From an uncultured Bacilli bacterium (GTDB lineage Bacteria; Bacillota_I; Bacilli_A; RF39; UBA660), in contig CAKPNA010000003.1 in the NCBI GenBank assembly GCA_934168275.1, positions 47,732 to 111,731 of the forward strand: a stretch of DNA of 64,000 bases, given 5' to 3'. The position numbers were made by a program, and so were the translations under genes. Positions 18,884 to 37,384 of the stretch are shown here, piece after piece (the stretch's first letter is position 1; each line of letters begins with the position of its first letter). The notes below the pieces were generated by a model. The model saw only the letters and a list, made by a program, of their open reading frames with translations. It was not told the DNA's origin and made no database searches.

Positions 18884-21800
18884 TTGGACTAAAGAACAAT
18901 TACAAGCTATAAACGAAGAAGGACAAAATATTATTGTATCAGCCGGAGCTGGTTCAGGTAAGACAGCCGTTCTATCTGAAAGGGTATTAAGAAAATTAAA
19001 ACAAGGAATTGATATTAACAGACTATTAGTACTAACATTTACTAATGAAGCCGCTGGTGAAATGAAAAATAGAATTAGAAAAAAAATTAAACAAGAACCA
19101 TCTCTAAAAAAACAACTAGATTATCTTGATGCTTCATATATTACAACATTTGATAGTTATGCTGGCTCTATTGTAAAAAAATATCATTATCTCTTAAATA
19201 TTCCTAAAAATATTACTATTATTGATAATGGTTTATTAGAACTTCAAAAAGACACCCTACTAGATAGTATTTTTGAATCTCTATATCAAAAACAAGATAA
19301 TGATTTCACAAATCTAATTAATAATTTTTGCACTAAAGATGATAAAGAAATTAAAAATGCAATAAAGAAAATTAACAATTCTCTAAATTTACGTCTAGAT
19401 AAAGATGAATATCTTGATAATTATAAATTAGATATTCCTAAGTATCTAAAACAATATAATGAACTACTACAGCATAAATTACTTGAACTAGAAAATGTTC
19501 TATATCGTTTAAGTTATTCATCCGATAGTACCTTCTATGAAAATATGTCTATCGCTTTAGAACCTCTACTAAAAAGTAGCAGTTATGATGAAATAGCCAA
19601 TAATTTTGCTTTAGTAAGTTTACCAAGAATACCTAAAGATAGTGAAGATGATATTAAGAAATTAAAAGATGAAATATCAAAAATACTAAAAGAATTTGAA
19701 ACTTTATGCCGATTCTCTAATGAAAAAGAAATTGAAGAATCTGTAAAGCAGACAGAAAACTATATAAGAATTATTATTAAAATTATTAAAGAATATGATA
19801 GTCAAATAATGGAATTTAAAAGAAATAATAATGCTTACGAATTTACTGATATTGCTTTATTTGCCATTAAAATAGTTAAAGATAATGAAGAAATAAGAAA
19901 AGAATTACAAAACTATTATAATGAAATATTAGTTGATGAATATCAAGATACTAGTGATTTGCAAGAGGCCTTTATTAACTTAATAGAAAACAACAATGTC
20001 TACATGGTTGGAGATATCAAACAATCTATCTATCGCTTTAGAAATGCTAACCCAACAATATTTAAAAATAAATATGATAAATATGCAAACGCTGATGGCG
20101 GATTAAAAATAGACTTACTTAAAAACTTTCGTTCAAGAAGCGAAGTTTTAAATAATATTAATGAAATATTTAATTTAATAATGGATAATACTCTAGGAGG
20201 AGCACAATATAGTGAATCTCATCAAATGGTATTTGGTAATACTACATATAATGAACAAGGACTAACTAATCAAAATAATAATCTAGAAATATATAACTAT
20301 CACTTAGAAGATAAAACATATTCTAAAGAAGAAGTTGAAGCATTTATTATTGCTAATGATATAAAAAATAAAATAGATAACCACTACCAAATATTTGATA
20401 AAGACACCTTAGAAGTAAAAGATATTACTTATTCTGATATCTGTATTATCATGGATAGAGGATCATCATTCCCATTATATAAAAAGATATTTGAATACCT
20501 ACATATTCCACTATCTATATATCAAGATGAAAAACTAACCACTGAAACAGATATTATATTAATAAAAAATATTATAAACTTTATCTTAAAAATAAAAGAA
20601 AAGAAATATGATACAGAATTTAAATATTATTACACATCAATCGCTAGAAGTTATCTTTTTGGTTGTTCAGATAGCGAAATATTTAAAACATTTACTAACA
20701 AAGACTTCTACCATACAGAAATCTTTAAATTAAGTAAAGAAATAGCTGATAATTTAGAAGAATTAACTAATATAGAACTACTAAATAACATAATTAACAA
20801 GTTTAATATCTACGAAAAAACAATTTTAGTAGGAGATATTGAAAGAAGTATGTATCGTATTCAAAACTTACAAAATATTGCCATGAACTTAGATAACTTA
20901 GGCTATAACCCATATCTATTCGGTGAATATCTAAAAGAAATGACTAATGGTAATAATGAAATAAGATATTCTTTAAATACTAAGAGTGGTAATAACGTAA
21001 AGATAATGAATATTCATAAATCTAAAGGCTTAGAATTTAATATTTGCTATTTCAGTGGTTTTCACAAAGAGTTTAATAAAGAAGATACTAAAGATAGATT
21101 TATATATGATAGTTCATTAGAAATTATTACCCCATATTATAACGAAGGAATAGGTAGCACTATTCTAAAAGATTTATTTAAAGATAAATATAAACAAGAA
21201 GATATATCTGAACGTATTAGACTATTTTATGTTGCCTTGACAAGATGTAAAGAAAAAATGATTATGGTATGTTCTCTTGATGAAGAAAAGAATATTGTTG
21301 AAGACATTGTAGACACCTCTATTAGAAGTAAATACAAATCTTTCTTAGATATTATTAATTCAATAAAAACAAAAATACCAAATTATATAAAATCTATTAA
21401 CTTAGATGATATAAATCTATCTAAAGACTATAACATTGTTCTAAGTAATAATTATCAAGATAAAATAGAACAAGATAATACTATTATTAATACTAAAGAA
21501 ATATCTATTGACCAAGTTGAAGAACAAAAACAAAGAGCTTCTAAAATAAGTAATAAACTAATAAGTAAAGAAGAAGCTAAAAACATGGAATATGGTACTT
21601 ATATGCACTATATATTTGAAACTGTCGACTTTAATAACCCAATATTAGATATTGAACCATTCTACCTAGATAAAATAAATAAATTTATCTCAGCAGTTGG
21701 TGATATAAAAGAAGCCCAAGTGTATAAAGAATACGAATTTATATATACTAAAGATAATAAAGAATATCATGGTATTATCGACTTATTACTAGAGTATGAT

Positions 21801-21965
21801 GATAAAATAAAAATAATAGATTATAAACTAAAAAATACTACTGATAAAGCTTATTTAGAACAATTAAAAGTATATAAAGAATATATAAGTAGTAAACTAA
21901 ATAAACCAGTAAGTACTTATCTATATTCAATTATTGATGAAAAATTAGTACCTATTGCAGTATAA
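18876..21965 (+). CDS. addA: ATP-dependent helicase/nuclease AddAB, subunit A (UvrD/PcrA-like helicase plus C-terminal nuclease)
   Basis: Walker A AGAGSGKT, VDEYQDT motif II, C-terminal GIIDLLLEY...IIDYK nuclease motif. ATG 18876 follows GGAGG. The ORF track starts at GTG 18867. Confidence 0.9.
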   Translation: MPSWTKEQLQAINEEGQNIIVSAGAGSGKTAVLSERVLRKLKQGIDINRLLVLTFTNEAAGEMKNRIRKKIKQEPSLKKQLDYLDASYITTFDSYAGSIVKKYHYLLNIPKNITIIDNGLLELQKDTLLDSIFESLYQKQDNDFTNLINNFCTKDDKEIKNAIKKINNSLNLRLDKDEYLDNYKLDIPKYLKQYNELLQHKLLELENVLYRLSYSSDSTFYENMSIALEPLLKSSSYDEIANNFALVSLPRIPKDSEDDIKKLKDEISKILKEFETLCRFSNEKEIEESVKQTENYIRIIIKIIKEYDSQIMEFKRNNNAYEFTDIALFAIKIVKDNEEIRKELQNYYNEILVDEYQDTSDLQEAFINLIENNNVYMVGDIKQSIYRFRNANPTIFKNKYDKYANADGGLKIDLLKNFRSRSEVLNNINEIFNLIMDNTLGGAQYSESHQMVFGNTTYNEQGLTNQNNNLEIYNYHLEDKTYSKEEVEAFIIANDIKNKIDNHYQIFDKDTLEVKDITYSDICIIMDRGSSFPLYKKIFEYLHIPLSIYQDEKLTTETDIILIKNIINFILKIKEKKYDTEFKYYYTSIARSYLFGCSDSEIFKTFTNKDFYHTEIFKLSKEIADNLEELTNIELLNNIINKFNIYEKTILVGDIERSMYRIQNLQNIAMNLDNLGYNPYLFGEYLKEMTNGNNEIRYSLNTKSGNNVKIMNIHKSKGLEFNICYFSGFHKEFNKEDTKDRFIYDSSLEIITPYYNEGIGSTILKDLFKDKYKQEDISERIRLFYVALTRCKEKMIMVCSLDEEKNIVEDIVDTSIRSKYKSFLDIINSIKTKIPNYIKSINLDDINLSKDYNIVLSNNYQDKIEQDNTIINTKEISIDQVEEQKQRASKISNKLISKEEAKNMEYGTYMHYIFETVDFNNPILDIEPFYLDKINKFISAVGDIKEAQVYKEYEFIYTKDNKEYHGIIDLLLEYDDKIKIIDYKLKNTTDKAYLEQLKVYKEYISSKLNKPVSTYLYSIIDEKLVPIAV

Positions 21966-21982
21966 ATATAAATATTATATAA

Positions 21983-23995
<2,013 letters not shown>

Positions 23996-24003
23996 GTGAA
24001 ACA

Positions 24004-24288
24004 GTGAATAGTATTGAAATAAATATAACTAATCTAAATAGTGAACAAAATATCAATATTGATATTACAAAAATGCAAATAAATATTAATGGTAAAGTTA
24101 AAACAATAACAGAAGAACAAATAAATAGTTTACTAAGAATAATAAGAACTTGGTCAAATAATAATAGTACTAAAATATTAGATGACCAAAAGTTTAATAT
24201 AATAATTGATAACAAAGAAGTAATTACCGGCAGTACTATGCTTCAAGATAATTACATTGAATTAGAAAGTTGGATTAATGAATTATGA
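24004..24288 (+). CDS. Small hypothetical protein
   Basis: 94 aa, GTG start after AGGTGA. Its stop overlaps the next start (ATGA). No motif recognised. Confidence 0.5.
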   Translation: MNSIEINITNLNSEQNINIDITKMQININGKVKTITEEQINSLLRIIRTWSNNNSTKILDDQKFNIIIDNKEVITGSTMLQDNYIELESWINEL

Positions 24289-24896
24289 TTACCGAAACTA
24301 TATCTCAAAGATTTAATGCCTCTATAATAATAAGAGAAAAGCTTCCCCAAATAATTGAAGCATTTGTTAGCTTCTATGGTGAAGAAGAACGAGACTATAT
24401 TGAAGACAAGTTTAAAAAAGTGTTTATAGTAAGCTATGGCAGTCCTAAAAGTTATGAAAGAATAATTGAGAAAAATGACAAAAAAGTAAAAGACTATTTA
24501 GAAGAAAAGTTATTAGCAGATTTAAAAATTCCGAGAAACTTAAAGCATAGATTTTTAGAATCTTTATTTGGAGAGCATGAAATATTTGATAATGAAGCCC
24601 CAATTGAAGAATATATTAAATATTTAAATAATGATATTAGTGAGATATCATATCCTAAAATAAAAAATTTATTAAATTACTTTGGGAAAAATACTAATGC
24701 TGATGTTTTAATTAAACATATAAAAAAAGGTGGATATGAAGAATTAAATAAAGTCATTGAGGTATATAAAAAAATAAAAGAAGAATATCATAAATACCTT
24801 GAATCAACAAAAGTATATCGTGATTATATTGTAAGATGCCAAGATTTATATAGTAAATTAGAAACCAAATATCTAAAAAATACATTGACGAAATAA
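24285..24896 (+). CDS. Hypothetical protein, N-terminal part of a frameshift-split ORF
   Basis: 203 aa ORF. The reading frame of the next ORF is already open from 24857, and one extra A in the A6 run at 24875-24880 fuses the two (see findings). Confidence 0.6.
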   Translation: MITETISQRFNASIIIREKLPQIIEAFVSFYGEEERDYIEDKFKKVFIVSYGSPKSYERIIEKNDKKVKDYLEEKLLADLKIPRNLKHRFLESLFGEHEIFDNEAPIEEYIKYLNNDISEISYPKIKNLLNYFGKNTNADVLIKHIKKGGYEELNKVIEVYKKIKEEYHKYLESTKVYRDYIVRCQDLYSKLETKYLKNTLTK

Positions 24897-24952
24897 AAGA
24901 TGTTTTTACTAAAGAAGAATTTCAAGAACTAGAAAATTTTCTAAATAAAAAA

Positions 24953-26053
24953 ATGTTATACGATGATTTAACTCCAAGAATTAAAAACTTTATCGGAACT
25001 AATCCATTAAATTCTCCACCATTAGTTGAATCATTTAGCGGTGAAAATGAAATTATAATTCAGAAAGATGACTCATGGCAAAAACGAAGTATTATCCAAG
25101 ATAGAATTACATATTTTAAAAATTTAGGTATAAATCTTGGTGAAAATTACCAAAGATACCAAATGAATAAAGAAGCCAAATCTGCTATTCCAACCGAAGA
25201 AATTGTAAACCATTTAAAGACTAGTCGTGAAAGTATAAGAAACGATTTAATGACTGAGTACTACGAAAGTTTACCTGAATATGCCAAATATCGTCAAGAA
25301 ATAACTAATCTAAACCTACTAGATAGAGAAGATAATTTCAATGCCCGATCATATCATCAAAATTCAACATTCACTTGTCCTAATTTAACACATGATGGCA
25401 CTAACTATCACTTAAAACAATTATTATTTATATCAATGGGAAGCCGTGAAGAGTATTTAGATAATAGTCTAATTCATGAATTTAATCATCTTTATGAAAC
25501 TGTTCTTAAAGAAGTTACCTCAAGTAATTACTCATGTATCAGTGGATGGGATGTTTTAGAAGGGAAAATAAACCAAAGCAGTGATTCATCTAAACCTATT
25601 GACCATAAAAGAGGCTTTCGTTCTTATGAATTATTTAATGAAATAATCAACGAATTACTATCTCAAGAAATATGTACAGGTATGCATCAAAATTCAGCTT
25701 ATATATTAAATAATCCTAAAGAAGCCAAAGTTGCAGGTGGTACTACCTACGAACTAGCATTATTCTTAGTAAATGATTTTTATCAAAAGTATAAAAAAGC
25801 AATAATAGCTAGTCGTAAAAATGGTAATATTAATATTATATATAATGAAGTAGGAAGAGAAAATTTTGAAGCCTTAAATTCCCTAATTGTAAAATTTAAA
25901 AGTAAATTTAATCGCACAAAATATGAATATACCAAAACATATATGGAAATGGGATGGGAAACAGAAGACACTAAAGAACTAAAAAGAATAATCGAAATTC
26001 GAGATAATATTTTAGAAAATATGAAAAAATATCAAGCAAGAATGACAAAATAA
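24953..26053 (+). CDS. Hypothetical protein with an HExxH (putative zinc-metallopeptidase) motif, C-terminal part of a frameshift-split ORF
   Basis: 366 aa from the first ATG. Contains SLIHEFNHLYE (H-E-x-x-H). The frame is open upstream to 24857. Confidence 0.6.
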   Translation: MLYDDLTPRIKNFIGTNPLNSPPLVESFSGENEIIIQKDDSWQKRSIIQDRITYFKNLGINLGENYQRYQMNKEAKSAIPTEEIVNHLKTSRESIRNDLMTEYYESLPEYAKYRQEITNLNLLDREDNFNARSYHQNSTFTCPNLTHDGTNYHLKQLLFISMGSREEYLDNSLIHEFNHLYETVLKEVTSSNYSCISGWDVLEGKINQSSDSSKPIDHKRGFRSYELFNEIINELLSQEICTGMHQNSAYILNNPKEAKVAGGTTYELALFLVNDFYQKYKKAIIASRKNGNINIIYNEVGRENFEALNSLIVKFKSKFNRTKYEYTKTYMEMGWETEDTKELKRIIEIRDNILENMKKYQARMTK

Positions 26054-26063
26054 CAAAAAACTA

Positions 26064-26092
26064 TTGTCAAACTAGAAAAAGTATGCTACAAT
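26064..26092 (+). promoter_or_regulatory. Extended -10 sigma-A promoter for tRNA-Met
   Basis: TTGTCA (26064-26069), 17-nt spacer, TGcTACAAT (-10 at 26087-26092). Confidence 0.65.
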
Positions 26093-26111
26093 TATATTGC
26101 TTACTTTTCAT

Positions 26112-26188
26112 GGCGATGTAGCTCAGTTGGCTAGAGCGATCGGTTCATACCCGATAGGTCGTGGGTTCGACCCCCTCCGTCGCTACCA
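26112..26188 (+). tRNA. tRNA with CAT anticodon, elongator tRNA-Met-like
   Basis: Hand-folded. Acceptor GGCGATG/CGTCGCT (two G-U pairs), D-arm GCTC-AGTTGGCTA-GAGC, anticodon arm ATCGG-TTCATAC-CCGAT, T-arm GTGGG-TTCGACC-CCCTC (one U-U mismatch), A-CCA encoded. Resembles the Bacillus elongator tRNA-Met as I recall it. A lysidine tRNA-Ile2 cannot be excluded by eye. Confidence 0.85.
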
Positions 26189-26200
26189 AGAGGAATTCTG

Positions 26201-26261
26201 CTCGAACTTTTATAGTTTCGAGTTTGATAAATAACTAATTCAGAAATGGATTAGTTTTTTT
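26201..26261 (+). terminator. Two tandem hairpin terminators after tRNA-Met
   Basis: ctcgaa...ttcgag+TTT (26201-26225) and aactaat...attagtt+T7 (26233-26261). Confidence 0.6.
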
Positions 26262-26480
26262 GTTATTAAAAACTATCCTAAAAGAAAGGATGGTATTATG
26301 GTAAATATTATTAAAGAAGAATTGCCTATTGAAGAATCATTAAGAAAGAAATTAGAACTGATATGTGAGTTTGCAAAAATAAAATAAAATTATATAATAA
26401 TGAATTAATGATGAGTCAGTAGTATTTAGACTTTACTAGATACTATTGTCTCTTCTTTTTTAGTAAAAGGAGTTGAAGTA

Positions 26481-26845
26481 ATGATAAGATATAAACTTTA
26501 ACTAATACATTAGTTAATGCAAACGAACAACTAAAAGATAAGAATAATAAGATTAAAACTCTTACTGAAAATAATGAAGCACTTGATTTAAGAGTTAAGA
26601 CTTTGAATGATACAATTAAAGAGAAAGACAATGAAATATCATTTTTAAAATCAAAAGTTCACGATTTGAAAAACACTCTTGAGTATTGGAAAAATAAGTT
26701 TGAAAAACTAATATCATTCTTACATGTTAAACTTCACAGTTGGTATGATAAAGATGATAAATATATTGATGTTGATAATGTTCTAGATGATGAAGACATC
26801 AAAGAATTGGATTTAAGCAAGGAAAAAGATGATTTTGAGAGATAA
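26481..26845 (+). pseudogene. Coiled-coil protein gene, frameshifted or truncated (relic of a mobile element?)
   Basis: A strong AAAGGAG RBS plus ATG 26481 gives only 6 codons before a stop. The frame containing ORF 26603-26845 is open from 26495 and reads LTNTLVNANEQLKDKNNKIKTLTENNEALDLRVKTLNDTIKEKDNEISFLKSKVHDLK... One extra base near the AAA at 26493-26495 joins them. Confidence 0.5.
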
Positions 26846-26857
26846 ATAAGATTAGTA

Positions 26858-26878
26858 TTTCTACAAAATGTAGAGAAA
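26858..26878 (+). promoter_or_regulatory. Inverted repeat (candidate operator) upstream of the HTH-CYTH operon
   Basis: tTTCTACAaaaTGTAGAgAa palindrome, about 20 nt upstream of an extended -10 (TGtTATAAT, 26895-26903). RBS AGGGAGG, ATG 26927. Confidence 0.4.
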
Positions 26879-26926
26879 AAAAGCATGGTAATTATGTTAT
26901 AATTTAATCGAGGGAGGAATTAAGGC

Positions 26927-27670
26927 ATGAATTATGGTGAAAGAATTAGTAAACTCCGACAAAGTAAAAACATTACTCAAAAAGAATTAGCTTCAAAACT
27001 ATATGTAACAGACAAAACTATTTCGAGCTGGGAATCAAATAGAACTGAACCTAGTTTAGAAATGATTATTAAGTTATCTGAAGTATTAGAATGTAGTGCT
27101 AGTTATTTATTATATGGCGATAATTTCAAAGACAACATTGAAATGGAAATTAAAATTAAATTAACCAAAGAAGAATATGAAAACTTGAACAAAATGATGA
27201 AATCAATAGGCAAATTTTTATTACAAAGTAATCAACAAGATATATATTATCAATCAGATTATTTAGGTGATGAGATTAATAAGTTACTAAGAATTAGATT
27301 GAGTGGTAATAAAAAAATATTAACTTACAAAACTTATAATAACAATATGTACTATGAAGAATATGAAGTTGAAATTGATAATAGTAATAATATGATGAAA
27401 ATATTTGATTTTATTGGTTTAAAGAAAATCACTGAGGTAAAAAAAGAAAGAATGATTTATTCTTATCAAGATAAATATGAAGTTTCTTTAGATAAAGTCG
27501 ATAATTTAGGATATTTTATTGAAATTGAAGTAAAGGGAACTATAAATGATTACTTTGAAGAATATGATAATCTGTTAAAGAACAGTAGAAATTTAGGGTT
27601 AAATCTAAATAATATAGAACAAAAAAGATATCCACAACTTATGATAAGCAAACAATTAATAGGAGGTTAA
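26927..27670 (+). CDS. XRE-family HTH domain fused to a CYTH (CyaB / triphosphate-tunnel metalloenzyme) domain
   Basis: 247 aa. N-terminal LRQSKNITQKELASKLYVTDKTISSWES (HTH_3). C-terminal EMEIKIKL (ExExK), LRIRLSG, YEVEID, KKERMIY, VSLDKVDNLGYFIEIEV are CYTH beta-barrel signatures. Confidence 0.8.
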   Translation: MNYGERISKLRQSKNITQKELASKLYVTDKTISSWESNRTEPSLEMIIKLSEVLECSASYLLYGDNFKDNIEMEIKIKLTKEEYENLNKMMKSIGKFLLQSNQQDIYYQSDYLGDEINKLLRIRLSGNKKILTYKTYNNNMYYEEYEVEIDNSNNMMKIFDFIGLKKITEVKKERMIYSYQDKYEVSLDKVDNLGYFIEIEVKGTINDYFEEYDNLLKNSRNLGLNLNNIEQKRYPQLMISKQLIGG

Positions 27671-27672
27671 AA

Positions 27673-29796
27673 ATGGCATTTATATATAGTAAAGATAAAA
27701 ATGATTCATTAGTAGTAGAGGACCCAATTTATGGGAAAATAGTTGTACCTTATCCTTTTTCTGATATAGTTTTAACAAAAGAAATGCAAAGACTATCAGG
27801 AATTTCTCAAAATGGCTTTTCACAATTAGAATTTAAAGAACTTGAGAATAACGATAGATTAAGTCATAGTGTTGGAGCTTTTTATGTAATGTCTTTATTT
27901 TTAAAAAGATTGGAAGAAATTTTGAAAAATTTTAATATAAAACTTAGTGAAGATGATAAAGATATTGCACTATGTTCTATGCTTTTACACGATATAGGAC
28001 ATGGCCCATTTTCTCATTCATTGGAACTAGTAACTAATTACTCACATGAGAAACGAACTACAGATATTTTACTTGGCGATACAGAAGTAAACAAAGTAAT
28101 AACAAATTTCTTTGGAAAGAAAAAAGTTAAAAAAATTGCTAGTTTTATAGCAGAAATTAATGATAGTCAAGAATTAGGAAAAGATAGTTTTACAAAATTA
28201 CTTAATAATTTAGTTTCCTATCAATTAGATGCAGATAGAATTGATTATTTGATTCGTGATGCACATTATGTTGGAATATCTTCTGCAATAGATTTAAAAA
28301 GAATTATTTCGAGTGTGAATGTAGTCGTAAATAACAATCAAGAATATGAATTACTAATTGATAGAAAAGGACTTGCAAGCATAGAAAATGTATTGTTACA
28401 AAGATATCAAATGTACAGAGATGTATATTTAAGTCCAGTTTCTGTTTTAGGTGATTATATCTATGAAAAAATAATTGAACGATATAGAAATACTATGAAA
28501 TTACACACTATGCCTGTTTCATCAAGTTTTAAAATATTGGCTACTGATTCAAGAGTAAATAATTTGAATGATTTTTTGAAAATGAAAGATGAAGATTTTA
28601 AGGTTTCTTTTAAATTATTATCTGATTCAAATTTAGATTCTATTATGGCTTACTTATGTAATTTTGATAATATAAAAGATTATATTTTAATAAAAAATGA
28701 TATTTCAATAAACAAAATTAAAACAAAATTAAGAGAGATATTTGGTGAAATTGATTTAGATAATACACTATCGATAATTAGTATTGGAACCAAAACAAAA
28801 CTATATAAAAAAGAACAAAAATTAAATATTCAAAATGGAAACAGAATTATGGATTTAACAGAATGTACTAATTTAATAAGACCACAAGAAATATTAGAAG
28901 ATACATATGTTTTCTTTAATCCTCAATTGTTGAGGTTGGAGCTTGGTTTAAGTGATATAGAATTTAGAAAATATGAAAGTGAGGTAAGAAAAATGATTGA
29001 GGAATTAAATAAAAAACCTGAAGAATTTGAACTAAAATATATTATTAACAAAAATCCTAATGAAGAAAAATCATTAGATCAAGAAACTTTGCTAAATCGA
29101 ATAATTTCAATATTTACATCTAATGGATTTAGAGTTGTTTCAGTAACAGAAAAAGAAAATAATGATGAATACTATGATACAAGAAATTTAGATTTATATA
29201 AAAATGGTGGTTCATTACGAATAAGAAAGATTGAACAAAAAGGTAAAGAAAAGATAAAAGCAACTTGCAAAATGCCACTAAAAAAAGGTGAAGTTTATTC
29301 ATCAAGAAGTGAAATTGAAGAAACTTTATCAGATGATAGTATTGAAACATTTATGCAAAAGATGGTTGATTCAGGGGTAACGGTTAATTTTGATGACATA
29401 TTAAAATTTCCTATTTTAAATTCTCGTACAAAAAGAAAAGATATTGTATTAGATAAAAATGGAGTTCAAGTATGTTTATCATTTGATAATAGTATATACA
29501 CTAATCATACATTAAATGAAATTTCTGCAACTGACAGGATGATTGAAATTGAAGCTATTGGAGAACTTAACAATAGAATTATACTTAATGAAATACATGA
29601 TTTTATAACATCTGCTTTTAGTAATTTAGAAGTTAATAAACAAAGCAAATATGAAAGAGGCATAAATCGTACATTACAATTACACAATTATTTAGAACAA
29701 CAACAATTTGCAGAGGAACAATCATCTTCACTTAATAATGGTTCAATTTCTGGTGCTGAAATCTTAATTAAAAGATTACAAAAACCTCAAAAATAA
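27673..29796 (+). CDS. SAMHD1/EF1143-like HD-domain (d)NTP triphosphohydrolase-family protein fused to a C-terminal CYTH domain
   Basis: 707 aa. HSVGAFYVM...LLHDIGHGPFSH...DADRIDYLIRDAHYVG (HD dNTPase-like core). From about aa 450: EFELKYII (ExExK), LRIRKIE, ATCKMP, RSEIEE, RMIEIEAIGE (CYTH). The start is 3 nt after the upstream stop, with a GGAGG inside the upstream gene's end. Confidence 0.8.
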   Translation: MAFIYSKDKNDSLVVEDPIYGKIVVPYPFSDIVLTKEMQRLSGISQNGFSQLEFKELENNDRLSHSVGAFYVMSLFLKRLEEILKNFNIKLSEDDKDIALCSMLLHDIGHGPFSHSLELVTNYSHEKRTTDILLGDTEVNKVITNFFGKKKVKKIASFIAEINDSQELGKDSFTKLLNNLVSYQLDADRIDYLIRDAHYVGISSAIDLKRIISSVNVVVNNNQEYELLIDRKGLASIENVLLQRYQMYRDVYLSPVSVLGDYIYEKIIERYRNTMKLHTMPVSSSFKILATDSRVNNLNDFLKMKDEDFKVSFKLLSDSNLDSIMAYLCNFDNIKDYILIKNDISINKIKTKLREIFGEIDLDNTLSIISIGTKTKLYKKEQKLNIQNGNRIMDLTECTNLIRPQEILEDTYVFFNPQLLRLELGLSDIEFRKYESEVRKMIEELNKKPEEFELKYIINKNPNEEKSLDQETLLNRIISIFTSNGFRVVSVTEKENNDEYYDTRNLDLYKNGGSLRIRKIEQKGKEKIKATCKMPLKKGEVYSSRSEIEETLSDDSIETFMQKMVDSGVTVNFDDILKFPILNSRTKRKDIVLDKNGVQVCLSFDNSIYTNHTLNEISATDRMIEIEAIGELNNRIILNEIHDFITSAFSNLEVNKQSKYERGINRTLQLHNYLEQQQFAEEQSSSLNNGSISGAEILIKRLQKPQK

Positions 29797-29806
29797 ATTA
29801 AAACTA

Positions 29807-29935
29807 TTGAAATAAATTATATATATGGTAAAATGTATTTAGTGATTAGTTGTTTATCAACTATTCCTAAAGTTTCGGATATACTATTTGTCCGTACCAT
29901 AATAAATATTAATAGATAGAAATATCTATTTTTTT
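29807..29935 (+). ncRNA. Candidate about 95-nt small RNA or leader with its own promoter and terminator
   Basis: TTGAAA (29807-12), 16-nt spacer, TGgTAAAAT (-10 at 29829-34). Internal stems (tagttg/caacta, cgga/tccg). Terminator atagata-GAAA-tatctat plus T-run (29912-29935). No ORF. The next gene has its own TGtTATAAT. Confidence 0.35.
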
Positions 29936-29975
29936 AATATTTATGTTATAATCATATAAAAAGAAGGCGATTAAC

Positions 29976-30473
29976 ATGGGCGGACTTAGTGTCATATTCT
30001 TAATGAGCATACTATCATTTATATTTCTTATCTATATATCTTTACTAGTAATAACAGTAATATATGCAATAATAAGTTATATATTTGAAAGTATGACTAT
30101 TACAACTATAAATAAAAATTTAAACCATAAGCACCCGTATACTGCATGGATACCATTCTATAACAAATACTTACTAGGCACTATTGCTGGGAACAAAGTG
30201 CTAGGTCACCTAACAGCCATCTTAAACTTTATTAACATGTCACTAACAGCATACTTCTACATCTACCAAAAACTAACTCTTATTCCATTTTGTATACTTC
30301 TAGTAAGTCTAATATTATCATTTATATTTAACACAATAATCTCTTACAAAATATATAAAAGTACCACAAATAAATATGGAGATATCTTAACCGTACTAAC
30401 TGTTCTATCACTAGGTTTCTTAAGACCTATAATACTATTTCTAATTAAAGATAAAATAACTATAAAAGAGTAA
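29976..30473 (+). CDS. Hypothetical polytopic membrane protein
   Basis: 165 aa with about 4 hydrophobic segments. AAGAAGG RBS. Confidence 0.6.
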   Translation: MGGLSVIFLMSILSFIFLIYISLLVITVIYAIISYIFESMTITTINKNLNHKHPYTAWIPFYNKYLLGTIAGNKVLGHLTAILNFINMSLTAYFYIYQKLTLIPFCILLVSLILSFIFNTIISYKIYKSTTNKYGDILTVLTVLSLGFLRPIILFLIKDKITIKE

Positions 30474-30475
30474 AA

Positions 30476-31021
30476 ATGAAATATATTGTATTACTAAGAG
30501 GAGTAAATATAAGTGGCAAAAATAAAGTGTCTATGCCTAAACTAAAACAATTACTAGAAGAAAATAGTTATCAAAACGTATCCACTTATCTTAATAGTGG
30601 TAATATTATTATTGAATCTAACATAAATAATAAAGAATTAATAATAGAAAACATATCTAAAATTATTGAATTTAACTTTAATATAAAAATACCAATCTAT
30701 ATCATGACAGTACCTGAACTAGAAGATATATTAAATAATAGTCCATCATGGTGGGGTACTACTAATAAAGAAATATATGATAACTTAATCTTTATAATAC
30801 CACCAACTACTTACGAAGAAGTCTATAATACAATAGGTAGCCCTAAAGAAAATGTTGATCAAATAGAAGAATATCATAACACTATATTTTGGTCATTTGT
30901 TCTAAAAGATTACCGTAAATCAACATGGTGGATTAAAACTGCCAGCACTAGTATAACTAACAAAATAACTATAAGAACCGCCAACACTATGAAAAAACTA
31001 TTACAATTATCCCAAAAGTAA
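30476..31021 (+). CDS. DUF1697-family protein
   Basis: 181 aa. The N-terminus MKYIVLLRGVNISGKNKVSMPKLKQLLEE matches the LLRGINVGGxxKxxM pattern I associate with DUF1697. Confidence 0.7.
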   Translation: MKYIVLLRGVNISGKNKVSMPKLKQLLEENSYQNVSTYLNSGNIIIESNINNKELIIENISKIIEFNFNIKIPIYIMTVPELEDILNNSPSWWGTTNKEIYDNLIFIIPPTTYEEVYNTIGSPKENVDQIEEYHNTIFWSFVLKDYRKSTWWIKTASTSITNKITIRTANTMKKLLQLSQK

Positions 31022-31098
31022 TAAATACACTACCATTTAATAAAAATATTTGCTATAATTAACTCAAGTAGTATAACTACCAAGAAAGGATGAAAATA

Positions 31099-31563
31099 AT
31101 GAAAAAGGTATTACCTAAACTTTTAGTACTAACTATTATTTTACTAACAATTACTGCTTGTGGAACTAAAGAACAAAAACAAACATATACTCTAAAAGAA
31201 ATCTTATCTAAAGTATATGCCCCAGTCGGAGAAGATTGCCCAAAAATGACTCAAACAAAATTAACAAAAGAAAACTTATCATATTATTTAGGACTAGATT
31301 CTCTTGATTTTGAAGAAGGAATAGCCTCTGAACCTGAAATGAGTTCTATAGCACACTCTGTAGTAGTAGTAAGAGTAAAAGATGGTGTTGATATTGAAAA
31401 GACTAAACAAGAAATTAAAGAAAAAGTAGATCCTGCTAAATGGATATGTGTACAAGCAAGCAGTGTCATTGTTGAAAGTAAAGACAATGTTATCATCTTA
31501 ATAATGTTAGACAATAACGACATAGCAACTAAAATGCAAGAAACTTTCAAGAATCTTGATTAA
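31099..31563 (+). CDS. Lipoprotein (DUF4358-like)
   Basis: Lipobox LLTITAC|G after a hydrophobic signal. ATG 31099 is 8 nt after AAAGGA. The ORF track starts at 31090. Confidence 0.7.
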   Translation: MKKVLPKLLVLTIILLTITACGTKEQKQTYTLKEILSKVYAPVGEDCPKMTQTKLTKENLSYYLGLDSLDFEEGIASEPEMSSIAHSVVVVRVKDGVDIEKTKQEIKEKVDPAKWICVQASSVIVESKDNVIILIMLDNNDIATKMQETFKNLD

Positions 31564-31670
31564 GACTAAAAGAAATTTTATATTTCTTTTTTTTCATGCC
31601 TTTATAATAAAAAGTTTACATTTAAAATAAATATTGTTATAATTGATATAGAGTAAAGAGGAGTGATAAC

Positions 31671-33326
31671 ATGGAAACCATAATAGTAACATTACAAAAT
31701 GGTAAAAAATTAGAATATAAAAAAGGTATTAAACTATATGAAGTACTAGAAAACTTAAAGAATGACCTACCATTTGATATCTTAATAGCGAAGTATCGCA
31801 ACGAATTTATTAATTATAACGATTCTCTAACTAAAAATGGTACTTTAGAATTATTTGATATAAATACTTCCCTAGGTAATAGAACATATGAAAGAGCCTT
31901 AACAATAGTCTTTAAAACGGCTGTATATGAAGTCTTAGGACCAGACACTAAAGTAATAGTAAGGCATTCATTAGATAAAGGCATATATATTGATATTGAT
32001 AAAAAAATAACTAAAGATAAATTAGAATTAATTAAAGTAGTTATGAAAGATAAAATAGCAAAACAAATTCCATTTACTAAGATTGAAACGACAATTCAAG
32101 AAGCTACTGAATACTTTAAAAATATTAAAAGAAAAGATTTAGTTAAAACCCTATTTTATAACAAATCTAACTATATAACTCTATATAAATTTGAAAATAC
32201 ATATCACTATGTTCTAGGACTATTACCAAATGATTCAGGAGTCTTAAAATACTTTGACTTAACATTACTAGAAGGTAAAGGTGTAGTTTTAAGATATCCA
32301 TCTATATATAATAATGGTAAAATAGTTAAATATACTCATCATGATAATTTATTTAACTCTCTAGAAGAATATGCTGAATGGGGAAGAATATTAAATATTA
32401 ATAACTTAGGTGATTTAAATGATTCAATAGTTAACACCAAACCAGGAGAACTAATTAACTTATCAGAATCTATTCAAGACTATAAATTATTAAAAATAGC
32501 AGAAACCATCAAGCAAAAAAGTAAAGATATCAAAATAATACTTATGTCTGGCCCATCTTCATCAGGAAAAACTACAACTGCAAGAAAACTATCTCTATAT
32601 CTAAAAACCCTAGGTTTAAACCCAATAGCCTTATCATTAGATGATTATTTCTTAGATAGAGAGGATACACCATTAGATGAAAATGGTAACTACGACTTTG
32701 AAAGTTTAAGAGCCATCGATACAAAATTATTTAATAACCAAATATCTAAAATGTTAAAAGGTAGTAAAGTAATAACACCAACATTTGACTTTGTAAAAGG
32801 TAAGAAGACATTTAAGAATGCTATTAAATTAGAAGAAAAAGATATCTTGATAATTGAAGGATTGCACTGCTTAAATGATGCTTTATTAGAAAGTATCCCA
32901 CGAAAAAATAAATATAAGATATATATTAGCCCATTACCATTCTTAAATATCGATAACGATAATAGAATTAGTATGACTGACTTAAGATTATTAAGAAGAA
33001 TGGTTAGAGATAATCGTGTTAGAGGATATTCCCCTAGTCAAACTCTAAAATCATGGGCCGACGTTAGAAAAGGTGAAGAAAAGTATATCTTCCCATTCCA
33101 AGATGAAGCTGATACTATCTTTAATTCAACATTAGCCTACGAATTAGCGGTCTTAAAAACTTATGCTGAACCATTACTATTCACAGTCCAAGAAGATGAC
33201 CCCGAATATGACACCGCCCTAAGACTATTACAACTATTAAAGTTTGTCTTACCAATGCCAAGCCAAGACGTCCCAAGCGTATCTATCTTAAGAGAATTTA
33301 TTGGTGGCAGTTATTTTGAAAGATAA
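31671..33326 (+). CDS. Long uridine kinase / phosphoribulokinase-family P-loop nucleoside kinase
   Basis: 551 aa. Walker A MSGPSSSGKTTTARKL in the C-terminal half, with DDYF and IIEG motifs of the Udk/PRK family, plus an extra N-terminal domain. Confidence 0.75.
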   Translation: METIIVTLQNGKKLEYKKGIKLYEVLENLKNDLPFDILIAKYRNEFINYNDSLTKNGTLELFDINTSLGNRTYERALTIVFKTAVYEVLGPDTKVIVRHSLDKGIYIDIDKKITKDKLELIKVVMKDKIAKQIPFTKIETTIQEATEYFKNIKRKDLVKTLFYNKSNYITLYKFENTYHYVLGLLPNDSGVLKYFDLTLLEGKGVVLRYPSIYNNGKIVKYTHHDNLFNSLEEYAEWGRILNINNLGDLNDSIVNTKPGELINLSESIQDYKLLKIAETIKQKSKDIKIILMSGPSSSGKTTTARKLSLYLKTLGLNPIALSLDDYFLDREDTPLDENGNYDFESLRAIDTKLFNNQISKMLKGSKVITPTFDFVKGKKTFKNAIKLEEKDILIIEGLHCLNDALLESIPRKNKYKIYISPLPFLNIDNDNRISMTDLRLLRRMVRDNRVRGYSPSQTLKSWADVRKGEEKYIFPFQDEADTIFNSTLAYELAVLKTYAEPLLFTVQEDDPEYDTALRLLQLLKFVLPMPSQDVPSVSILREFIGGSYFER

Positions 33327-33335
33327 AGGAGAAAT

Positions 33336-34943
33336 ATGAAAAATAATAAAATTTTATTAATAAGAATAATATTAACTTTAGTATTTGCTATGATAACATA
33401 CTATCTATTTTTACCTCCAATAAATATTCATAGTTTTGGCTTCTGGGCCTATATAATTGCACTAATTATTGTCTACAACATAACTAGCGTATTTAAATTA
33501 TTAAACTTTAAATATAGTAATATAACTAATATTTTTCATAAAAGAAATATTGAATTTCCAAAAAGTATAATTGCTATATTTATAATAATTGGTGGTACTA
33601 TCATTGCTAATTTTATAGCATCTCCATTATTTAACTCTAAAAGTTATGCTAATAGAATAACAATTAATGATAGTATTGAATTTACCGAAGGCATCAAAGA
33701 AGTAGATTTTAATACTCTACCATTACTTGATAAAACTTCTAGCCAAAAACTAGGTGATCGTGTAATGGGCCAAATGTCTGACTGGGTAAGTCAATTCTAT
33801 GTCAGTGATTTATATACTCAAATAAATTATAACAACGAAATAATTCGTGTCACACCATTAGAATATGCCTCAATAATAAAATACTTCTCTAATAGAAAAG
33901 AAGGAATAAAAGGCTATATAACAGTTAACTCTGTCAATGGTGAAGCTAAATTAATAAGACTCAATAAAGGTATGAAATATATGCCAAGTGCCTTATTTAA
34001 TGAAAACTTATATCGTAAACTAAGATTTAATCACCCAACAGAAATATTTGACACAGCCTCATTTGAAATAGATAACGAAGGTAATCCATATTGGATAGTA
34101 CCAACCGTATCCTATAAAGCAGTCGGTGTCAAAAAAGAAATAAATGGTGCTATTATACTAGACCCAATAACGGGTAAAAGTAAAAAATATATATTAGAAG
34201 AAATCCCAACATGGGTTGATCATATCTACTCAGCAAGTTTAATTATTGAACAAGTCGATGATTGGGGTCAATATCAAAATGGCTTCTTCAATACCTTATT
34301 TTCTCAAAAAGGGGTTATTATGACAACCGATGGTTATAATTATATAAGTCTAAATGATGATATATATCTATATACCGGAATAACATCAGTATCATCAGAT
34401 GAATCTAATCTAGGATTTATTCTATGTAATATGCGTACTAAAGAAACAAACTATTACAAAGTACCGGGTGCTGAAGAATATTCTGCTATGGCCTCTGCTG
34501 AAGGGCAAGTTCAACAAATGAAATATACATCAACCTTCCCATTACTAATTAACTTAAACGGTAAACCAACATATTTAGTAAGTTTAAAAGATAATGCCGG
34601 CTTAGTTAAAATGTATGCCTTTATCGATGTAACAGACTACCAAAAAGTAGTAGTATCTGATGCTTCACTAGGCATAAATAAAGCCGCAGCCAACTATCTA
34701 GCAAGTTATTCAACTAACTATAACGAAGAATTATTACAAACTAAAGAAATTACTATAAAGAATATTAGTATGGGTATAGTCGAAGGCAATAGTTATTATT
34801 ACATTATGGATACTAACAATCAAAAATATAAAGTATCATTAACAACTAGTGATTTATTACCATTCTTAATAAATGGTGATACTATTAAAGTATCTTATCT
34901 CGAAGAAGAAGAAATAATTAATATCGTTAACATTGAAAAGTAG
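33336..34943 (+). CDS. Hypothetical membrane protein with large extracytoplasmic domain
   Basis: 535 aa. Three N-terminal TM segments. Starts 10 nt after the kinase stop (AAGGAG RBS). Confidence 0.65.
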   Translation: MKNNKILLIRIILTLVFAMITYYLFLPPINIHSFGFWAYIIALIIVYNITSVFKLLNFKYSNITNIFHKRNIEFPKSIIAIFIIIGGTIIANFIASPLFNSKSYANRITINDSIEFTEGIKEVDFNTLPLLDKTSSQKLGDRVMGQMSDWVSQFYVSDLYTQINYNNEIIRVTPLEYASIIKYFSNRKEGIKGYITVNSVNGEAKLIRLNKGMKYMPSALFNENLYRKLRFNHPTEIFDTASFEIDNEGNPYWIVPTVSYKAVGVKKEINGAIILDPITGKSKKYILEEIPTWVDHIYSASLIIEQVDDWGQYQNGFFNTLFSQKGVIMTTDGYNYISLNDDIYLYTGITSVSSDESNLGFILCNMRTKETNYYKVPGAEEYSAMASAEGQVQQMKYTSTFPLLINLNGKPTYLVSLKDNAGLVKMYAFIDVTDYQKVVVSDASLGINKAAANYLASYSTNYNEELLQTKEITIKNISMGIVEGNSYYYIMDTNNQKYKVSLTTSDLLPFLINGDTIKVSYLEEEEIINIVNIEK

Positions 34944-34957
34944 CAATACTTTTCTTT

Positions 34958-35305
34958 TTATATATCAATATTACTATCTACATTAGCATTTATTGCCACA
35001 TAAAGAAAGGTAAAACCCCCAATAACATTAAAAATATTAGCCATTAAATTAGTATAATTTATATCACTAGGATTATTTCTATATTGATTATAACTATTAT
35101 TTAAAAAATAAAGATATATAATTACTAGTACTATAAAAATAAATATATTTATATTCTTACTATCTATTCCATCTTGATAATTATTATTAACAATACTATT
35201 CTTCTCATAATAATTAGATAAAAGTGCTAATAAAATAATAATTATATATATTACCCAAATAATATTCTCAATATCAATATTTTTAATTTGTATACTCTTA
35301 TTCAT
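34958..35305 (-). CDS. Hypothetical small membrane protein
   Basis: 115 aa, three hydrophobic segments, convergent with the upstream operon. Confidence 0.5.
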   Translation of the reverse strand: MNKSIQIKNIDIENIIWVIYIIIILLALLSNYYEKNSIVNNNYQDGIDSKNINIFIFIVLVIIYLYFLNNSYNQYRNNPSDINYTNLMANIFNVIGGFTFLYVAINANVDSNIDI

Positions 35306-35419
35306 ACTAAAATATATTATCGATAAATAAATATATAATAAAAATAGTAGATATCTTAAAATACTAATATTGAATATCTACCTAATTTATAGTATAATCT
35401 TAACTAAGTGAGGTGTATT

Positions 35420-36718
35420 ATGAAAATAAATACTCAAAATTTAAAAGGTACTACTGATTATTATGGTAAAGACCAATTAATAAGAAATAAAATAACAGAT
35501 ACCTTAAAAGAAACATTTATAAAATATAATTATCAACCACTAGATTCAACAGTATTATATAACTATGATATTCTAGCATATAAGTATAAAGATGGTGCTG
35601 AAATATTAAATGAAATGTATACTCTAACAGACCAAGGCAATAGACAACTAGGATTAAGATATGATTTAACAATACCATTCTGCAAATTTATTGCTAACCA
35701 AAAAGATTTAAGATTACCATTAAAAAGATATGAAATAGGTAAAGTATTTAGAAATGGCCCAGTTAAAACTGGAAGATGTCGTGAGTTCTATCAATGCGAT
35801 GTCGATGTCGTTGGCATAAGTGGTCAAGTAATTGAAGCCGAACAAATGCAAATGGTTGTTGATATATTTACTAAATTAGGAATAGATATAAATATTAAAT
35901 GGAATAATAGAAAATTAATGAGTGTGATAATTGAAGACTCTAATATTTCTAAGGATAAAGTAGAAGAAGTAATTGGTATTATTGATAAGATAGAAAAGAT
36001 TAGTAGACAAGAATTTATTAAAGAACTATCTAAAATAGAAATAGATGAAGAAACAGCTAATAAATTATTAGATAACTTTAATAAATCACTAACTGATTAT
36101 ATTGAAACATATGAAAATGATGAAAGAGTAGTAGCTTGTGAAGCCATTCAAGAAATAAAAAAATTATCTTCATATATTGAGAAATTAAACTTATCAGATA
36201 ATACTACATTTACTCCAACATTAGCTCGTGGATTAAGTATCTATACATCAACAGTATTTGAATTCTTTGATAAAAAAGAAAGATTAACTTGTTCTCTAGG
36301 TGGTGGTGGTCGATACGATAAAATAATTACCGACTTTATTGATGATGGTAATATTTATCCTGCTGTAGGACTATCATTTGGTCTAGAACCTATATATACG
36401 ATTATAAAAGATGAAATGTCTTCTGATAACTTAATAGATGTCTATATTATTCCCATGGGTACTGAAGTTGAATCATTAATGTTAGCTAGAAACCTTCGTC
36501 AAAACAATATTAATGTTATTGTTGAAATGAATAATCGTAAATTAAAAAAATGCTTTGAATATGCAAACAAAGAAAATATTAAATATGTCATAGTAGTAGG
36601 TAGTGATGAAATTCAAGAAAATATGTATACTATCAAAGATATGACTACATCAGAACAATTAAAACTACCATATAACGAACTAAAAGACTATATATTAACA
36701 AACAAAAACCAAGGATAA
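35420..36718 (+). CDS. hisS: Histidine--tRNA ligase
   Basis: Class II motifs. LKGTTDYYG, RYDLTIPF, KRYEIGKVFRNGPVKTGRCREFYQCDVD (motif 2), GGGGRYD (motif 3 region). ATG 35420 follows GTGAGG. Confidence 0.9.
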   Translation: MKINTQNLKGTTDYYGKDQLIRNKITDTLKETFIKYNYQPLDSTVLYNYDILAYKYKDGAEILNEMYTLTDQGNRQLGLRYDLTIPFCKFIANQKDLRLPLKRYEIGKVFRNGPVKTGRCREFYQCDVDVVGISGQVIEAEQMQMVVDIFTKLGIDINIKWNNRKLMSVIIEDSNISKDKVEEVIGIIDKIEKISRQEFIKELSKIEIDEETANKLLDNFNKSLTDYIETYENDERVVACEAIQEIKKLSSYIEKLNLSDNTTFTPTLARGLSIYTSTVFEFFDKKERLTCSLGGGGRYDKIITDFIDDGNIYPAVGLSFGLEPIYTIIKDEMSSDNLIDVYIIPMGTEVESLMLARNLRQNNINVIVEMNNRKLKKCFEYANKENIKYVIVVGSDEIQENMYTIKDMTTSEQLKLPYNELKDYILTNKNQG

Positions 36719-36752
36719 TTTATAAACCCTTGGTTTTTAATATAAAGTTTTT

Positions 36753-37220: not shown

Positions 37221-37384
37221 AAATAAATCACTCCTCCTACCATAAGTATAACATCTATCAACTAATATGTAAATTAAAAATGTAAAATATTTTACTTAAA
37301 TTTATTGTAAATAAATGTCTACCTAATATAGTAAAGTTTATGCTATAATAAAATAAAAAATTATTAGTAAAGGAGAAATGTATT

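Follow-up and report, generated by a model that had tools for sequence, protein, structure and literature searches.

We describe a two-gene operon found in 64,000 nucleotides of DNA (the window; positions 47,732 to 111,731 of contig CAKPNA010000003.1, assembly GCA_934168275.1) from an uncultured Bacilli bacterium of the RF39 lineage. Gene 1 encodes a protein with an XRE-type helix-turn-helix (HTH) and a CYTH domain of the triphosphate tunnel metalloenzyme (TTM) type, and gene 2 encodes an HD phosphohydrolase ending in a second CYTH domain; the pair is carried by a small accessory islet inserted after a transfer RNA (tRNA) gene for methionine (Table 1). Database annotation of both proteins goes no further than 'HD domain-containing' or 'CYTH domain-containing'. 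Contigs identical to the window occur in Hadza gut metagenomes. The TAA stop of gene 1 occupies 27668-27670 and the ATG of gene 2 begins at 27673, two bases on; the coordinates of the open reading frames (ORFs), this spacing and the GGAGG inside gene 1 agree with the translational coupling claimed in a preliminary description of the locus made from the sequence.

The N-terminal part of the gene 2 protein is, judged by its structural model, a complete HD fold of the EF1143/SAMHD1 type, helical lobe included. Pfam reports HD (1.2e-7), HD_assoc_2 (1.4e-5) and CYTH (1.4e-8), all above their gathering scores. The closest solved relative found by phmmer in the PDB is EF1143 of Enterococcus faecalis (2o6i, E 2e-29), followed by BT4208 and SAMHD1 (about 1e-13). 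The AlphaFold2 (AF2) model (predicted local distance difference test, pLDDT, 86.8) matches full-length EF1143 in Foldseek with template modelling (TM) scores of 0.75-0.77 over about 455 columns, and BT4208 and the SAMHD1 core match as well; identity to EF1143 in the structural alignments is 23%. Because the model aligns to full-length EF1143, the stretch of some 250 residues that the preliminary description had taken for a linker is instead the helical lobe of this fold.

Among 44 gene 2 homologues (48-90% identity) the residues H65, H106-D107, H110, H115, H125-E126, D186, D188, R189 and Y192 are invariant. The metal-binding set H...HD...D (H65, H106-D107, D188) aligns to the EF1143 and SAMHD1 motifs, and H110, H115 and H125-E126 correspond to the catalytic histidines and the HE dyad (SAMHD1 H210, H215, H233-E234), a dyad for which a requirement has been described (PMC12265719). 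The SAMHD1/EF1143-type HD core first proposed from short motifs, all of them present, is thus upheld by the Pfam and PDB matches and by the invariant catalytic residues. The solved members of the EF1143/SAMHD1 family share with gene 2 the whole fold and the metal-binding and catalytic residues; they lack its extra C-terminal CYTH/TTM domain and, unlike them, gene 2 sits on a mobile islet.

That C-terminal domain, likewise claimed beforehand, is confirmed by the Pfam match and by invariant signatures: in the same 44 homologues E451-x-E453-x-K455, R516-x-R518, K529/K533, E547/E549, R588 and E625-x-E627 do not vary, the RxR motif reading R516-I-R518 and the C-terminal ExE motif E625-I-E627. The closest solved relative of its profile, a distant one, is the YjbK-like GBAA_1210 (3sy3, E 0.004). 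This type of CYTH domain is very rare, with 114 cluster representatives among 1.84 billion. The 114 include HD-CYTH proteins (about 670-700 aa), HD-CYTH-CYTH proteins (about 910 aa), and CYTH-HD proteins with a different HD type. The recurrence of these three orders supports a functional link between HD and CYTH domains. P0268, P0280 and P0281 (about 910-920 aa) are HD-CYTH-CYTH variants; in P0268 catalytic glutamates are gone from the first CYTH (EFQAK, EVQ), and the second keeps ExExK, RxR and ExE, an arrangement that, by its motifs, looks like duplication with subfunctionalisation. For the CYTH-HD proteins P0306 and P0330 a sequence comparison gave no relative in the PDB, and the EF1143-type profile fails to align with their HD part; they support a recurrent HD/CYTH association, not the same enzyme. 

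Gene 1 matches HTH_3 (2.1e-16) and CYTH (3.1e-19) in Pfam, both above gathering scores, and its translation holds all the motifs quoted in the preliminary description, so that an XRE HTH joined to a CYTH barrel stands as described there. Fourteen homologues (55-89% identity) have E72-x-E74-x-K76, R122, E145/E147/E149, K173/R175 and E199-x-E201 invariant. The RxR motif is R122-I-R124, its second arginine moving to RIGxR in distant homologues, and the C-terminal ExE is E199-I-E201. In structure the AF2 model (pLDDT 81) comes closest to three archaeal triphosphatases, PH1012, Pfu-838710 and SaTTM, with the Yersinia cyclase YpCyaB ranking behind them. Gene 1 also scores 87.9 bits on the NCBIfam model TIGR00318 'cyaB' (cutoff 57.95). 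This score is not decisive for cyclase membership, since the model also takes in archaeal TTMs that are triphosphatases, not cyclases (PMC8233210).

True class IV cyclases are distinguished by three features (Vogt et al., 2021, PMC8233210): HF stands four residues ahead of ExExK, the first arginine of RxR gives way to a small residue, and ExE is changed to ExA. At the HF position gene 1 has N-F, both residues variable among homologues, and gene 2 has L-N; RxR and ExE are kept in both proteins. Because all three cyclase determinants fail, both CYTH domains are predicted from their sequences to be triphosphate-tunnel hydrolases, despite the 'cyaB' score of gene 1, and both have the hydrolase-type signatures ExExK, RxR and the C-terminal ExE (metal 2). 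They share these with enzymes that hydrolyse inorganic triphosphate (PPPi) or nucleoside triphosphates (NTPs), namely NeuTTM, CthTTM, SaTTM, E. coli YgiF and the YjbK-type CYTH proteins of Firmicutes. The two domains belong to different subfamilies, that of gene 1 being archaeal-TTM-like, with its best superposition on SaTTM and the Pyrococcus TTMs, and that of gene 2 YjbK-like. In contrast to known TTMs they do not stand alone, and their fusion partners are an XRE HTH and a predicted deoxynucleoside triphosphate (dNTP) hydrolase (dNTPase) instead of CHAD.

Upstream of gene 1 lies the 15-bp palindrome TCTACAAAATGTAGA, for which comparison of related promoters gives strong evidence as the operator of the HTH::CYTH protein, be it for repression or for activation. 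It is invariant in nine of nine aligned promoters, including two from loci with gene 1 alone, while the flanking sequence diverges, and TGnTATAAT is conserved downstream of it. At 53 of 78 gene 1 loci the palindrome lies 60-72 nt upstream of the start codon, as TCTAC-W5-GTAGA in 42 and as CTAC-N5-GTAG in 11 more. The palindrome had been put forward beforehand as the target of this protein, and its conservation across the promoter alignment and these loci favours that assignment. In locus L099 gene 1 has been lost, and the operator and a decayed promoter are kept directly in front of gene 2.

Gene 1 has the marks of an autoregulated XRE repressor, an HTH_3 domain and a conserved palindrome at its own promoter. 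With XRE autoregulators that carry a C-terminal effector-binding or enzymatic domain it shares the N-terminal HTH_3, similar to phage C2/CI repressors, and the palindromic operator just upstream of its own promoter; it differs in having a catalytically intact TTM as the C-terminal domain. A literature search found no description of an XRE-CYTH regulator, nor of an HD-CYTH dNTPase or of this operon. HD-CYTH fusions as such are already listed by Iyer and Aravind (2002), to the extent that a later paper cites that list (PMC8233210). The preliminary description, which knew of no described system with this architecture, holds for the operon of HTH-CYTH and HD-CYTH genes and not for the HD-CYTH fusion.

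We surveyed both genes for their distribution. A scan with the full-length gene 2 alignment (pattern LHDIGHGP) was dominated by generic EF1143-like HD proteins and gave one true HD-CYTH locus; our gene 2 counts rest on a scan with the CYTH alignment only, taking one genome per species. This gave 24 gene 2 loci, all in metagenome-assembled genomes (MAGs) of uncultured gut Bacilli or Clostridia, and a scan of metagenome contigs with the same domain gave six loci. The paired loci among metagenome contigs are listed in Table 1. L122 and L123 keep the close arrangement of the window, with 1-3 nt between gene 1 and gene 2, amid flanking genes that differ wholly from locus to locus; the tight spacing is kept in five unrelated flanking contexts (the window, L094, L122, L123 and L125). 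In a rough neighbour-joining tree the pairs fall in one crown clade and a deep branch, L122, with L099 inside the crown clade. A conserved syntenic housekeeping pair was considered and rejected, no flanking gene being common to the window and to related loci outside its own species.

Gene 1 relatives were found in 237 species-level genomes. We examined the neighbourhoods of the best 80 of these 237, among which 66 had at least 1.5 kb of downstream sequence, and found no conserved neighbour of gene 1 across the loci. One solo gene 1 homologue (L119:8768-10415) is followed by a 136-aa protein without Pfam match, ThyX, another nucleotide-metabolism neighbour, and peptide deformylase. Gene 1 is the more widespread of the two, a stand-alone regulator-enzyme that, we infer, came to be placed in front of gene 2 within a single sublineage of gut Bacilli. 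Gene 2, being usually alone, is a self-sufficient unit. On these sequence comparisons the operon is a lineage-restricted but stable combination.

The islet was delimited by comparison with empty sites. L214 (contig 1 of MAG CAKOYD) and L232 (MAG UBA6414) are colinear with window positions 19766-26196 and 29895-38031 at 95-97% nucleotide identity and are without everything between 26196 and 29895, the junction falling directly after ...CGCTACCA. In the empty sites the CCA end of tRNA-Met is followed directly by the terminator (TAATGAATATTAATAGATAG...). In the window it is followed by AGAGGAATTCTGCTCGAAC..., and the insertion ends in ...TTTGTCCGTACCA, after which the same terminator resumes. The insertion is polymorphic between closely related genomes. 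In order the islet contains a decayed 180-aa ORF, gene 1, gene 2 and a conserved, strongly folding 3′ region.

Table 1. Features of the islet and of loci related to it. Positions are those of the window unless a locus is named.
Feature	Position	Strand	Detail or basis
tRNA-Met (CAT); its 3′ CCA end is the islet insertion point	26112-26188	+	ARAGORN; Rfam tRNA, 63 bits
Accessory islet, 3,711 bp	26189-29899	+	Empty-site comparison
Left-end hairpin CTCGAAC-N8-TTCGAG, 12 nt inside the islet	26201-26222	+	Read from sequence
Decayed ORF remnants, 29 aa (26298-26387) and 80 aa (26603-26845)	26298-26845	+	180-aa coiled-coil protein intact in L094
Operator palindrome TCTACAAAATGTAGA (TCTACA-AAA-TGTAGA), 15 bp	26860-26874	+	Predicted; comparative sequence
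Extended -10 element TGtTATAAT, predicted promoter	26895-26903	+	Conserved block TATGTTATAAT in promoter alignment
Gene 1, 247 aa	26927-27670	+	XRE HTH, residues 4-63; TTM-type CYTH, residues 70-240
GGAGG ribosome-binding site of gene 2, within gene 1	27662-27666	+	Read from sequence
Gene 2, 707 aa	27673-29796	+	
EF1143/SAMHD1-type HD phosphohydrolase fold, N-terminal ~440 residues of gene 2	27673-28992	+	PDB phmmer, Foldseek
C-terminal CYTH/TTM domain of gene 2, residues 445-670, distantly YjbK-like	29005-29682	+	Pfam
Structured 3′ region ending in hairpin CGGATATACTATTTGTCCG and TACCA, the islet right end	29836-29899	+	Fold z-score -5.7
Native tRNA-Met terminator hairpin, shifted 3.7 kb by the insertion	29912-29935	+	Directly after CCA in L214 and L232
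Paired locus, metagenome contig	L122		Gene 2 identity to window 60%
Paired locus, metagenome contig	L123		Gene 2 identity to window 79%
Paired locus, metagenome contig	L124		Gene 2 identity to window 78%
Paired locus, metagenome contig	L125		Gene 2 identity to window 81%
tRNA or tmRNA upstream of gene 1 homologue	L138:4803-4879		
tRNA or tmRNA upstream of gene 1 homologue	L140:4823-4897		
tRNA or tmRNA upstream of gene 1 homologue	L155:701-789		
tRNA or tmRNA upstream of gene 1 homologue	L157:4770-4854		

The same islet occurs elsewhere, at 95% identity, in L094 (contig 9 of MAG CAKOYD), where the match to the window is limited to positions 26184-29900 and the flanks differ. On its left this copy adjoins the 3′ fragment of another tRNA (...GACTGGTACCA, then AGAGG...). 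Together the empty sites and this second site bear out the mobile, tRNA-linked context proposed at the outset. Directly upstream of the L094 copy (L094:56-2925) are genes for a DnaB-like helicase, an excisionase-like HTH protein and a 402-aa tyrosine integrase, and a tRNA-Leu; these could be the source of a recombinase acting in trans. No recombinase was found among the ORFs of the islet, from the ORF list and Pfam. Two further right-flank contexts, L117 and L136, both break at the same ...CCGTACCA; conservation of the 3′ region extends as far as ...GTCCGTACCA in the window and in L094, L136 and L117, with complete divergence beyond.

The 80-aa remnant in the window is 78% identical to the C-terminus of the 180-aa ORF of L094, and no Pfam or PHROGs family matched the decayed ORF. 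The preliminary description had mentioned decayed mobile-element-like ORFs nearby, which is right in that this islet ORF has decayed, and is not borne out for the ORFs at 24004-26053, where nothing matched in Pfam or PHROGs. It had also placed the pair in low-GC DNA, which is not distinctive here. The islet has 24.4% GC, the 10-kb flanks 26.0% and the window 26.3%, and with islet GC so close to that of its surroundings a low-GC island was rejected.

Window positions 29807-29899 hold a promoter-like TTGAAA-16-TAAAAT preceded by TG, then a conserved and strongly folding run of about 65 nt (z -5.7) with no Rfam match. This structured stretch at the right end could be a small RNA, a 3′ untranslated region structure or a recombination site. 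The right end was also considered as a tRNA remnant or known RNA, and Rfam found only tRNA-Met; other gene 1 islets offered candidates for tRNA-3′-like right ends, which we set aside because they lay within coding sequence. Neither the empty tRNA-Met site nor any of the other tRNA trailers inspected has the left-end hairpin. Hairpins of the form (A)CTCGAAC-loop-TTCGAG follow the CCA of different tRNAs upstream of gene 1 homologues (L139:1952, L144:4808, L148:1957, L166:2254, L212:4485), and the element may be a left-end signal of the islet or belong to the tRNA trailer. The hairpins adjoining both islet ends give a formal resemblance to non-autonomous IS200/IS605-type elements.

At 13 of 60 gene 1 loci (set L135-L213) a tRNA or transfer-messenger RNA (tmRNA) gene in the same orientation precedes gene 1 by no more than about 1.2 kb, and the tRNAs near gene 1 loci are those for Met, Leu, Gly, Thr, Lys, Arg and Glu. 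This is far above expectation from tRNA density, and suggests a family of islets that target tRNA 3′ ends and are marked by the XRE-TTM gene. The islet resembles tRNA-targeted integrative islands in its insertion exactly at the tRNA 3′ end, with an empty and a second site documented, and in a partial repeat of the tRNA 3′ end at its right end (TCCG..TACCA); it differs in its size of only 3.7 kb, its lack of an integrase and its very short direct repeat.

Two observations concern the surroundings of the islet. In a strain 99.8% identical (L090:1-2000), the sequence upstream of tRNA-Met (window positions below 26047) is replaced by genes for SmpB and a 374-aa HTH_38 protein (IS30-like transposase); because this upstream sequence is replaced too, the tRNA-Met region is a rearrangement hot spot on both sides. 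A 551-aa protein of the PRK/uridine-kinase family is encoded at 31671-33326, 1.9 kb downstream of the islet and outside it. Plant TTM1/2 fuse a PRK/uridine-kinase-type kinase to a CYTH domain. Since the empty-site genomes keep the kinase gene, its proximity to the islet is probably coincidental.

The operator is conserved, and each of the three enzymatic domains keeps its fold and its catalytic residues. The reading we favour, tentatively and at a little short of an even chance, combines these into an accessory, autoregulated dNTP triphosphohydrolase with built-in disposal of PPPi. A dimer of the gene 1 protein would bind the palindrome through its XRE HTH and control its own promoter and, by translational coupling, gene 2 as well. 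Its TTM domain would be the ligand-responsive module, opening or closing on a tri- or polyphosphate or an NTP-type ligand; open/closed transitions and inhibition by pyrophosphate (PPi) are described for SaTTM (PMC8233210). The HD site of gene 2 would hydrolyse dNTPs to deoxynucleoside and PPPi, and the C-terminal TTM would split PPPi into PPi and phosphate (Pi). Such cleavage would remove a strongly chelating product and make dNTP destruction irreversible. In sum, a mobile accessory gene would lower the dNTP pool in a controlled way, and restriction of invading replicons would be the most plausible benefit. The HD::TTM fusion is chemically sensible, since PPPi is a very strong chelator of divalent cations and enzymes hydrolysing it (PPPases) have been proposed as 'metabolite proofreading' enzymes (PMC3440374).

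Several points weigh against this autoregulated dNTPase. The genes are mostly unlinked: gene 2 lies downstream of gene 1 at only four of the 66 assessable gene 1 loci, and among the 19 gene 2 loci with enough upstream sequence gene 1 immediately precedes gene 2 at three and gene 2 stands alone at 16, so that gene 1 cannot be the dedicated partner of gene 2. With so low a co-occurrence, the pair of the preliminary description is not a widespread two-gene system; it is confined to one sublineage of gut Bacilli. Solo gene 2 copies other than L099 have ordinary promoters without the operator. The CYTH domain of gene 2 stands far from every characterised TTM (E 0.004). Every step of the mechanism is drawn from sequence and models rather than from biochemistry, and the sequence does not specify whether the HD site acts on dNTP, NTP or another nucleotide, or which substrate either TTM tunnel takes.

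Among the alternatives, a dedicated anti-phage or anti-plasmid system of dNTP depletion, in which the HTH::CYTH repressor silences the HD::CYTH effector until released on infection, ranks highest; it goes back to the preliminary description, and we consider it plausible though unlikely. dNTPases are proven defence effectors, and Clover (CloA/CloB) is a regulated example (PMC12265719). The anti-phage dGTPases (Tal et al., 2022) and Clover use the same HD-type class of dNTP-destroying enzyme as predicted for gene 2. In Clover the dNTPase is restrained by a second enzyme acting on a triphosphorylated nucleotide (PMC12265719), a conceptual parallel to gene 1; the partner there is a nucleotidyltransferase, here an HTH-TTM protein. 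The presence/absence polymorphism of the mobile islet fits a defence role, as does the lack of synteny of both genes across relatives.

Some gene 2 relatives have neighbours that point the same way. One solo HD-CYTH gene (L097/L130; L130:1-16363) lies between a complete Wadjet JetABCD with a Mob_Pre relaxase and a large serine recombinase, with an HTH_3 gene also present, in an apparent integrative mobilisable element. AbiEi/AbiEii are found about 8 kb from another relative (L081), and a transposase remnant adjoins yet another. At the other loci the neighbours are mostly housekeeping genes, such as those for DnaE, SecA, UvrA, FtsZ and tRNA synthetases, which counts against a defence function. 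PADLOC applied to 209 neighbour ORFs gave matches to JetC/JetD, AbiD, mad, PDC and DndA/SspA, several of them evident housekeeping look-alikes (NifS as DndA), and only Wadjet was resolved; false positives of this kind lower the value of the bulk matches.

Evidence from the proteins themselves is also unfavourable to defence. The PADLOC dGTPase model covers only residues 61-124 of gene 2, 64 residues around the HD motif (E 1e-5), and the scores on NF041026, for antiphage dGTPase, and TIGR01353 are 18.5 bits (cutoff 400) and 22.5 bits (cutoff 152). Neither protein is matched as a whole by any PADLOC or NCBIfam defence model, so that gene 2 differs here from the Dgt-type enzymes. A 2026 survey of dGTPase fusions lists TIR, NLR, CARD, SIR2 and SAM domains, not CYTH. 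No defence gene was found within 10 kb of the operon in the window, and when the CYTH domain of gene 2 was searched against viral contigs, INPHARED phages and PLSDB plasmids no relative turned up. Most copies of the supposed effector are without the repressor, behind promoters that look constitutive. Farther along the window, a 1,295-aa ORF at 40183-44070, in its most AT-rich part (19-21% GC), has no Pfam family and a marginal match to PADLOC mad8 (E 2e-4).

A somewhat less likely alternative, which we doubt, is that the genes are functionally unrelated neighbours, gene 2 having landed behind an autoregulated HTH::CYTH gene or the reverse, with the shared CYTH domain coincidental. The breadth of gene 1 across species-level genomes without a conserved neighbour, the rarity of gene 2 beside it, the existence of gene 1-only and gene 2-only derivatives among close relatives and the different subfamilies of the two CYTH domains would all follow from chance adjacency. 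Chance adjacency fits poorly with a pair that stays 1-3 nt apart while gene 2 identity ranges from 60% to 100%, and that does so in five flanking contexts, or with an operator kept before gene 2 after the loss of gene 1 in L099; and both proteins have intact triphosphate-handling domains, which fits a shared metabolite.

It is improbable, more so than the foregoing, that the HD site acts on another nucleotide (NTPs, (p)ppGpp-like alarmones or an oligonucleotide signal), with the CYTH domain serving as a regulatory nucleotide-binding module or second hydrolase. Members of the HD superfamily differ widely in their chemistry. Gene 2 has low identity to EF1143, and the first CYTH of P0268 (ExQxK, ExQ) implies that a non-catalytic CYTH role exists in the family. 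Against this, the whole EF1143/SAMHD1 fold is matched, helical lobe included; the set H..HD..H..H..HE..D..D.Y typical of dNTP triphosphohydrolases is invariant; and the catalytic residues of the C-terminal CYTH do not vary in the 44-sequence family.

A joint reading of islet and operon can be given about the same small probability. It would have a hitherto unrecognised family of integrase-less islets inserted after the CCA of tRNA or tmRNA genes and marked by the XRE-TTM gene, whose product would be a one-component regulator of a new kind, sensing PPPi or a triphosphorylated nucleotide; the HD::TTM protein would be an anti-phage or anti-plasmid, dNTP-depleting effector with PPPi disposal, and PPPi would feed back on expression. 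Finally, that one or both CYTH domains are class IV nucleotide cyclases making a cyclic nucleotide signal, an alternative raised in the preliminary description and prompted again by the TIGR00318 match of gene 1, was rejected as highly improbable on the three published determinants (PMC8233210) and on the archaeal triphosphatases that precede YpCyaB among the structural neighbours of gene 1.

The component parts of this system are all of known kinds; what is new is the logic of the fusion, a regulator with its operator, and a small islet at a tRNA CCA end. If the favoured autoregulated dNTPase is true, a natural fusion couples dNTP triphosphohydrolysis to destruction of its product PPPi. For SAMHD1/EF1143-type chemistry generally it would then follow that PPPi may be worth removing or sensing, and a physiological source of substrate would be at hand for bacterial TTM enzymes, whose roles in vivo are largely unknown. 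The XRE-TTM protein, which at least 237 species of uncultured gut Bacilli encode and which has a defined 15-bp operator, is an uncharacterised transcription factor-enzyme that is directly testable. Should the operon be a defence element, it would add a regulated type of dNTPase, and one that comes from organisms of the gut that have been poorly sampled. With its clean occupied and empty sites, the tRNA-Met locus offers a tractable, very small mobile islet in reduced-genome gut Bacilli, a clade without genetics.

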